Of a stretch of DNA of 11,249 bases, positions 863 to 2,637 are shown piece by piece. Below the pieces are notes generated by a model. It worked only from the letters and a program-made list of their open reading frames with translations. It ran no database searches and was not told the DNA's origin. The DNA is taken from the IMG/VR virus record IMGVR_UViG_2859793810_000003, one strand, 5' to 3'. The position numbers and the translations under genes were made by a program. How positions within the stretch are numbered: the first letter of the stretch is position 1; each line of letters begins with the position of its first letter. Origin of the DNA: a virus. Its lineage: Duplodnaviria > Heunggongvirae > Uroviricota > Caudoviricetes.

Positions 863-1169
863 CTGACATGCTAAAGCAAAAAATAGATGAATAAGTTGAG
901 TTGTGCATATGTAGCCTGACCGTCACAAAGTATATGGTGTCTGTACCAGTAAGATGATGGCCGGACTCTTTAAAAAAGAGCTGACCTGCACAATACAGGA
1001 TGGACTTAGCAATGGCTGCTCCTGGCACAAAGCGGACAGTGATCACCGTTCTTACGACTACTTTCTGACTTCCTTCGTGACTTGCCCTAAGCATGTTTGA
1101 AGTGGCACACTGAATTTGGCCACCTGAACAGAGGTGATATGCTCACCTCAGAACAACACAGGTGCTCCA

Positions 1170-1472
1170 ATGAAAAAAAGAAATTTTAGCGCAGAGTTTA
1201 AACGCGAATCCGCTCAACTGGTTGTTGACCAGAAATACACGGTGGCAGATGCCGCCAAAGCTATGGATGTTGGCCTTTCCACAATGACAAGATGGGTCAA
1301 ACAACTGCGTGATGAGCGTCAGGGCAAAACACCAAAAGCCTCCCCCATTACCCCGGAACAAATTGAAATCCGTGAGCTCAGGAAAAAGCTACAACGCATT
1401 GAAATGGAGAATGAAATATTAAAAAAGGCTACCGCGCTCTTGATGTCAGACTCCCTGAACAGTTCTCGATAA
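1170..1472 (+). CDS. IS911 OrfA (HTH / leucine-zipper transposition regulator)
   Basis: Protein [21 protein letters not shown]...[18 protein letters not shown] recognised as IS911 OrfA; the ORF-track start at 1134 is an upstream in-frame extension, the ATG at 1170 is the likely start. Confidence 0.9.
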
Positions 1473-1498
1473 TCGGGAAACTCAGAGCGCATTATCCT

Positions 1499-2338
1499 GT
1501 GGTCACACTCTGCCATGTGTTCGGGGTTCATCGCAGCAGCTACAGATACTGGAAAAACCGTCCTGAAAAACCAGACGGCAGACGGGCTGTATTACGCAGT
1601 CAGGTACTTGAGCTACATGGCATCAGCCACGGTTCGGCCGGAGCAAGAAGCATCGCCACAATGGCAACCCGGAGAGGCTACCAGATGGGACGCTGGCTTG
1701 CTGGCAGGCTCATGAAAGAGCTGGGGCTGGTCAGCTGTCAGCAGCCGACTCACCGGTATAAACGTGGTGGTCATGAACATGTTGCTATCCCTAACTACCT
1801 TGAAAGGCAGTTCGCCGTGACCGAGCCAAATCAGGTGTGGTGCGGTGATGTGACCTATATCTGGACGGGTAAGCGCTGGGCGTACCTCGCCGTTGTTCTC
1901 GACCTGTTCGCAAGAAAACCAGTGGGCTGGGCCATGTCGTTCTCGCCGGACAGCAGGCTCACCATGAAAGCGCTGGAAATGGCATGGGAAACCCGTGGTA
2001 AGCCCGGCGGGGTGATGTTCCACAGCGATCAGGGCAGTCATTATACGAGCAGGCAGTTCCGGCAGTTATTGTGGCGATACCAGATCAGACAGAGTATGAG
2101 CCGGCGCGGAAACTGCTGGGATAACAGCCCAATGGAACGCTTCTTCAGGAGTCTGAAGAACGAATGGATGCCGGTGGTGGGTTACGTAAGCTTCAGCGAG
2201 GCAGCTCACGCCATAACGGACTATATCGTTGGATATTACAGTGCACTAAGACCGCACGAATATAACGGTGGGTTACCCCCAAACGAATCGGAAAATCGAT
2301 ACTGGAAAAACTCTAACTCGGTGGCCAGTTTTTGTTGA
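1499..2338 (+). CDS. IS911 OrfB (DDE transposase catalytic domain); in vivo made mainly as the OrfAB fusion by -1 frameshifting
   Basis: 279-aa ORF in the -1 frame relative to orfA, protein recognised as IS911 OrfB; ORF-track start is GTG, the true OrfB frame opens further upstream. Confidence 0.9.
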
Positions 2339-2346
2339 CCACTTCA

Positions 2347-2397
2347 GTTGTAGTGCGATACTTGTAATGACATTTGTAATTACAAGAGGTGTAAGAC
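2347..2397 (+). promoter_or_regulatory. relBE operator/promoter region (relO-like TTGTAAT / ATTACAA inverted hexads) with Shine-Dalgarno AGAGGTG
   Basis: Sequence cTTGTAATgacatTTGTAATTACAAgaggtgtaagacATG directly upstream of relB; palindromic hexads seen in sequence. Precise promoter elements not determinable here. Confidence 0.5.
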
Positions 2398-2637
2398 ATG
2401 GGTAGCATTAACCTGCGTATTGACGATGAACTTAAAGCGCGTTCTTACGCCGCGCTTGAAAAAATGGGTGTAACTCCTTCTGAAGCGCTTCGTCTCATGC
2501 TCGAGTATATCGCTGACAATGAACGCTTGCCGTTCAAACAGACACTCCTGAGTGATGAAGATGCTGAACTTGTGGAGATAGTGAAAGAACGGCTTCGTAA
2601 TCCTAAGCCAGTACGTGTGACGCTGGATGAACTCTGA
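2398..2637 (+). CDS. relB: RelB antitoxin (type II TA, RelB/DinJ family)
   Basis: 79-aa protein MGSINLRIDDELKARSYA...RNPKPVRVTLDEL, near-identical to E. coli K-12 RelB as I recall it; stop overlaps relE start (ATGA overlap). Confidence 0.93.
   Translation: MGSINLRIDDELKARSYAALEKMGVTPSEALRLMLEYIADNERLPFKQTLLSDEDAELVEIVKERLRNPKPVRVTLDEL

Follow-up and report, generated by a model that had tools for sequence, protein, structure and literature searches.

What transcribes a toxin-antitoxin operon after a mobile element has settled in front of it? This question is raised by a stretch of 11,249 nucleotides (the window; IMG/VR virus record IMGVR_UViG_2859793810_000003), in which an IS911 element ends 51 bp upstream of the antitoxin gene relB (ATG at 2398). 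A complete IS911 has transposed into the sigma-70 promoter of relBE-hokD, which here belongs to what remains of the Qin prophage in Shigella flexneri, and it sits in the spacer of this relBE promoter (PrelBE). The preferred reading, to which we assign a probability of roughly 70%, is that relBE is still transcribed, from a hybrid of IS and native sequences, and still autorepressed by RelB2-RelE.

The IS911 copy is 1249 bp long (1098-2346, plus strand), and its transposase genes are co-oriented with relBE. It is 100% identical (1249/1249) to copies on S. flexneri virulence plasmids, annotated there as 'IS3-like element IS911 family transposase' or 'IS911 ORF1/ORF2'. The 'IS911 ORF1/ORF2' of pCP301 is 99.9% identical. 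IS911, of the IS3 family, has imperfect 36-bp terminal inverted repeats with 5'-TG...CA-3' ends, and such ends are found here. Comparison of the left repeat (IRL, 1098-1133, plus strand, TGAAGTGGCACACTGAATTTGG...) with the right repeat (IRR, 2311-2346, minus strand, TGAAGTGGTCAACAAAAACTGG...) gives a match at 24 of the 36 positions, each repeat starting with TGAAGTGG. The orfA reading frame (1170-1472, plus strand) encodes 100 aa. A slippery heptamer, A AAA AAG (A6G), is located at 1421-1427 on the same strand, where a -1 frameshift would produce OrfAB. Read across the shift, the frame has no stop for 389 aa, up to 2338, and is annotated in the same way in one of the assemblies that carry the insertion (L002). 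The orfB frame (1427-2338, plus strand) represents the post-frameshift part of OrfAB and includes the rve/DDE domain; the Pfam domains HTH_Tnp_1 and rve are assigned to the same IS911 genes in L002, L003 and L006. Because of the full identity to annotated copies and the open OrfA and OrfAB frames, this copy is intact and looks functional.

The target duplication of IS911 is 3 bp long, occasionally 4 bp. The element is bordered by GTT on both sides, at 1095-1097 and at 2347-2349, in agreement with this length. An empty site was reconstructed by joining 870-1097 to 2350-2700, with a single GTT kept. It gives one ungapped alignment (579/579) at 99.8% identity with K-12 MG1655 and with a further 1172 E. 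coli genomes. The only mismatch to K-12 is at position 977, and the 228-bp left flank has one nucleotide change relative to K-12. In addition, a 121-bp empty-site probe has an exact match in four Shigella-like genomes. Since the reconstruction matches K-12 without gaps and exact empty sites exist in four genomes, the GTT pair is a genuine target duplication and a chance repeat is excluded. The earlier reading of this DNA from its sequence only (the sequence-only reading) had described a clean IS911 insertion with an intact GTT duplication, and both the alignment and the identity of the element bear this out.

An assembly artefact, or a chance repeat posing as a target duplication, was also considered and rejected; it is hardly conceivable here. 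The one point in its favour is that Shigella genomes, rich in IS, are hard to assemble in general. Four assemblies made independently (L002, L003, L005 and L006) contain both IS911 junctions, as do short draft contigs, and two of the four, L003 (CP026788.1) and L006, show 100% identity with the window across 7094 nt. Strains that carry the IS include those of CP026788.1 and CP106857.1. Related genomes with an exactly empty site and the gapless alignment of the reconstruction to K-12 argue against an artefact as well.

On its left side, IS911 adjoins the remnant of ydfV (870-1094, minus strand), as identified from the K-12 annotation and by protein comparison. This divergent annotated gene has been split after codon 9 by IS911: IS911 severs its first nine codons, and the final 18 are lost to IS600. 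Gene callers report the remnant as a 92-aa ORF (816-1094) that extends into IS600, and the comparison of this ORF with the 101-aa YdfV of K-12 confirms the position of the split. In K-12, no more than 24 bp lie between the start of ydfV and the relB ATG, and the ydfV ATG corresponds to 2371-2373 of the window on the minus strand. The annotated ydfV start codon falls within the left half-site of the relO operator.

Two inverted IS600 copies (1-869 and 8776-9731) are 100% identical over 869 nt. They flank a segment made up of ydfV', relBE-hokD, rem, ydfU, rusA and an antiterminator gene. With ydfJ, ydfI and dcp as reference, the orientation of this segment is the reverse of that in K-12, which points to an inversion, mediated by IS600, within the Qin remnant. 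An IS1-like element of 768 bp (9732-10499) with 23-nt terminal inverted repeats adjoins the right IS600 at 9731/9732. The remainder of this IS600 is missing past the IS1-like element, which looks like an IS1-associated truncation.

The same IS600-ydfV junction is found in four genomes (L011, L012, L013 and L019) that have the exact empty site and no IS911. CP102209.1 and CP044155.1 are among the relatives that lack the element. As this junction is common to the genomes without the element, IS911 was inserted after the IS600 event, and S. flexneri is polymorphic for it. Neither this polymorphism nor the split of ydfV after codon 9 was part of the sequence-only reading. The IS911 junction was found in 0 of 5426 complete E. 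coli genomes and gave no exact match among the GTDB species representatives. The accessions that list the 92-aa ydfV' ORF are those of S. flexneri. More than 100 draft contigs encode partial YdfV proteins that are labelled S. flexneri and have an intact N-terminus. Alleles with the IS yield contigs of only ~300-560 bp, which precludes frequency estimates based on drafts, and neither relB nor ydfV is mentioned in the supplements to Hawkey et al. (2020), consulted for the population frequency. One draft contig (L004, PUGS01001070.1) connects the ydfV'-IS600 junction through many IS fragments to fimbrial, crl and porin fragments, and is probably a chimeric or collapsed assembly.

The operon downstream of IS911 is intact, and all its genes lie on the plus strand. 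RelB, a ribbon-helix-helix antitoxin that also serves as the repressor, is encoded at 2398-2637 (79 aa; Pfam RelB), the toxin RelE at 2637-2924 (95 aa) and HokD (RelF) at 2996-3151 (51 aa). The relB stop and the relE start overlap at 2637. All three proteins are 100% identical to their K-12 counterparts. The operon ends with a terminator-like hairpin followed by a T-run (3220-3247, plus strand, terminator scan). At position 3235, in the stem of this hairpin, three of the genomes without IS911 (L011, L012 and L019) have a T, whereas the window and K-12 have a G. Directly downstream of hokD, in the rem and ydfU region (3163-4196), the identity to K-12 falls from 100% to ~96%, and Rem differs from K-12 Rem at six residues. 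This drop is consistent with prophage mosaicism and with a recombination boundary where the relBE-hokD cassette ends.

The relBE promoter has been dissected by Overgaard et al. 2009 (PMC2812701), who described it as strong. The relO operator covers -10 to +17, and RelB binds four hexads of the form [A/T]TGT[A/C]A, arranged as two abutting 12-bp half-sites that overlap the -10/+1 region. Dinucleotide mutations of TA and CT at -10 to -7, in the -10 box, abolish the promoter. In the window, four such hexads are present at 2362-2385 (plus strand), as TTGTAATGACAT (2362-2373) and TTGTAATTACAA (2374-2385). They are the same as in K-12, in keeping with a relBE type II toxin-antitoxin operon under relO autoregulation. 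A -10 box ending at -7 and an operator ending at +17 (= 2385) fit only if the start site is the G at 2369 (plus strand), with GATACT at 2357-2362 (-12 to -7) as the -10 hexamer. GATACT is thus the experimentally validated native -10 and no fortuitous hexamer. It belongs to an extended -10 element, TG-c-GATACT (2354-2362, plus strand), the TG of which (2354-2355) is also flagged by the promoter scanner. In the reconstructed and K-12 empty sites, a TTGCCC sits exactly 17 bp upstream of GATACT. Judged by this spacing, TTGCCC (1082-1087, plus strand) is the putative native -35.

IS911 has therefore been inserted inside the 17-bp spacer of PrelBE, between -35 and -10 and at -23 relative to the inferred start, with the right GTT copy at -22 to -20. 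TTGCCC is now ~1.25 kb away from GATACT. The sequence-only reading had located the two GTT copies, a TTGACC at 2335-2340, GATACT 16 bp after it and relB at a distance of 51 bp, and direct reading returns the same positions. Its displacement of the native upstream promoter context by 1.25 kb agrees with the position of the inferred -35. It had also placed the element just upstream of a relO-like operator. The two are indeed adjacent; this operator, however, is relO itself, identical to K-12, and the insertion lies within the promoter. Comparison with the uninterrupted relB upstream region of K-12, which it had proposed as a check, shows TTGCCC and GATACT 17 bp apart at the empty site.

The right end of IS911 brings a substitute for the lost hexamer. 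TTGACC (2335-2340, plus strand), bp 7-12 of IRR, faces outward, is flagged by the promoter scanner and takes positions -34 to -29 of the hybrid. It is separated from GATACT by a 16-bp spacer. Together with the TG extension, this arrangement scores 9/12 against the consensus in the promoter scanner and lies 36 bp upstream of relB. In comparison, the native K-12 arrangement, TTGCCC-17-GATACT, reaches 8/12, below the threshold of the scanner, and is not called. In 2.4 kb, the scanner reports two sites versus 1.7 expected from shuffled sequences. As a bare pattern, TTGACC/GATACT thus occurs at chance frequency, and its weight comes from the literature-validated -10 and from the relO that follows it.

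Hybrid promoters composed of an outward -35 from an IS end and a resident -10 (PMC9330008, PMC12095673) have been described for IS1, IS2, IS256, IS257 and others. In IS911, IRR contains the outward -35 and IRL a -10, which a 3-4 bp spacer joins in the transposon circle (review PMC9330008). This junction promoter is ~40-fold stronger than the own promoter of the IS and about twice as strong as PlacUV5 (PMC9330008). The IRR -35 gives a strong promoter when a suitably spaced -10 is available (PMC9330008, PMC12095673). The relBE junction has the same features: an outward -35 in the terminal repeat, a flanking -10 within the 16-18 bp range and a co-oriented operon downstream. In the classic cases, a silent or weak gene is activated, often a resistance gene, whereas here a strong autoregulated promoter has exchanged its -35. 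The expected outcome at relBE would be preservation, not activation.

The following course of events is proposed. The right end of IS911 supplied TTGACC at 16 bp from the native TGcGATACT, in place of the putative native -35, and RNA polymerase would start relBE-hokD at or near the original +1 from the hybrid promoter. Repression by RelB2-RelE at the -10/+1 region would be expected to persist because relO, relB and relE are unchanged. The negative feedback would buffer steady-state expression, so that a difference, if any, would appear at the derepressed maximum only. No terminator-like site was found by the terminator scan on the plus strand between 1098 and 2398; because none separates orfB from relB, weak read-through from the IS911 promoter may add transcripts that are independent of relO. 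The hybrid promoter might also be less than ideal. Its spacer is one off the optimum. OrfAB protects the subterminal part of the IRs and leaves the first ~10 bp unprotected (PMC7780238); when bound to IRR, it could hinder polymerase at the -35. Compensatory changes were not found in the promoter, relO, relB, relE or hokD when genomes with and without the IS were compared.

With regard to the possible hybrid promoter of the sequence-only reading, its anatomy stands: the -10 is the native one, and an IRR -35 at 16 bp takes the place of the native -35. Its strength may have gone up, down or stayed the same. The hybrid has 9/12 with a 16-bp spacer versus 8/12 with 17 bp for the native promoter; the retained TG may leave either -35 of minor importance. 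The suggestion that IS911 could newly drive relBE-hokD is inapt, since a strong promoter was already present. Deregulation, understood as loss of autoregulation, is unlikely given that relO, relB and relE are those of K-12.

A close relative of the relBE junction is the IS911 circle-junction promoter (pjunc). The two share their -35 hexamer and its position in IRR, and both have a TGn-extended -10 as partner. Judged by spacing, pjunc would have its -10 at IRL bp 9-14 (CACACT, with TGG before it). At relBE the spacer measures 16 bp versus 17 bp for a 3-bp junction, and the -10 hexamer of relBE is the better one. Moreover, pjunc is transient and drives the transposase, whereas the relBE junction is chromosomally fixed, drives host genes and has an operator. 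The IRL tip (1098-1111, TGAAGTGG-CACACT) and the relBE flank (TGTAGTGC-GATACT; 2349-2362, TGTAGTGCGATACT), which begins 2 bp from the tip of the element and lies outside IRR, are equal at 10 of 14 positions, a match with a background of 4.5e-4 per position and p = ~0.01 after about 20 implicit tests. Beyond bp 14, in the protein-binding part, 5/22 positions match, which is the chance level. This likeness could hint at an IR-targeted insertion, or could reflect two TGn-extended -10 elements, which would explain much of the match. At the left junction (1082-1111), TTGCCC stands 18 bp upstream of CACACT in IRL (1106-1111), with a TG at 1103-1104, and faces the transposase genes. With only 7/12 consensus positions and no call by the promoter scanner, TTGCCC-18-CACACT is a speculative reciprocal hybrid.

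Three other accounts of the junction have to be set beside the preferred reading. Extended -10 promoters tolerate the loss of a -35. If PrelBE is effectively independent of its -35, the native TGcGATACT would suffice, TTGACC would be a bystander and relBE expression would be essentially unchanged. The TG one base upstream of the hexamer fits this account, as does the description of PrelBE as strong in spite of a poor inferred -35 (TTGCCC, 4/6), suggesting that the -10 region carries the promoter. GATACT, however, matches the -10 consensus at only 4/6 positions, and such promoters usually still profit from a -35. TTGACC is a 5/6 match at an allowed position, 16 bp away, and we consider independence from the -35 rather unlikely.

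The insertion may instead have crippled PrelBE through the lost upstream DNA, the suboptimal spacer or transposase bound to IRR. The operon would then be mostly silent, or be transcribed only by read-through from the weak IS911 promoter or from the left-junction hybrid, as a first step to decay of the locus. Gene loss driven by IS elements is ongoing in S. flexneri; IS911 is among five expanded IS, and Shigella chromosomes carry 229-348 IS copies each (PMC7373316). IS600 and IS1 already flank the locus and have rearranged it, and the lack of a terminator-like site between orfB and relB and the protection of the subterminal IR part by OrfAB are compatible with such a course. Nevertheless, the hybrid is closer to consensus than the native promoter, and relBE and hokD are free of mutations in every IS-bearing genome examined. 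RelB being a Lon substrate (PMC2812701), an abrupt shut-off of relBE would be expected to free the more stable RelE. Silencing by the insertion therefore appears quite improbable. The other account is a reciprocal 'promoter swap', in which the host TTGCCC, 18 bp from TGg-CACACT of IRL, would drive the transposase, and the IRR TTGACC, 16 bp from TGc-GATACT of the host, would drive relBE. The transposase transcript could run on into relBE-hokD and OrfAB at IRR could modulate relBE, and transposase and toxin-antitoxin expression would be coupled. The insertion would have survived as 'addiction' removes silencing insertions, and the likeness of the -10 to the IRL tip may have guided IS911. This wider scheme is speculative, and we hold it to be improbable.

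In comparison with relBE-hokD (relBEF) of K-12, every base from 2347 to 3162 is the same as in MG1655, including the extended -10 TG, the -10, +1, relO, relB, relE and hokD. By contrast, the -35 and all upstream DNA have been replaced by IS911, ydfV is disrupted and the surrounding Qin segment is inverted between the two IS600 copies. Our literature search found no published IS911 hybrid promoter at relBE and no report of this particular IS911 insertion. IS-derived hybrid promoters are textbook knowledge, and an IS911 beside a gene is ordinary in Shigella. What stands out is the exact exchange of a -35 and upstream DNA at a model promoter, with everything else unchanged and a putative function.

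The insertion is one among several hundred IS in a Shigella genome, and it leaves the current understanding of IS911 and relBE unaltered. The relBE promoter-operator is among the best-studied models of how conditional cooperativity governs the autoregulation of toxin-antitoxin genes. In the window, its -35 and everything upstream have been swapped naturally, while the -10, the operator and the genes were left intact. Sister S. flexneri genomes in which the site is exactly empty, and which share the IS600-bounded surroundings, provide a ready natural control pair. This pair addresses how much the -35 and the upstream DNA contribute to the set-point and induction of relBE, and whether the right end of IS911 may act as a portable -35 in the chromosome.
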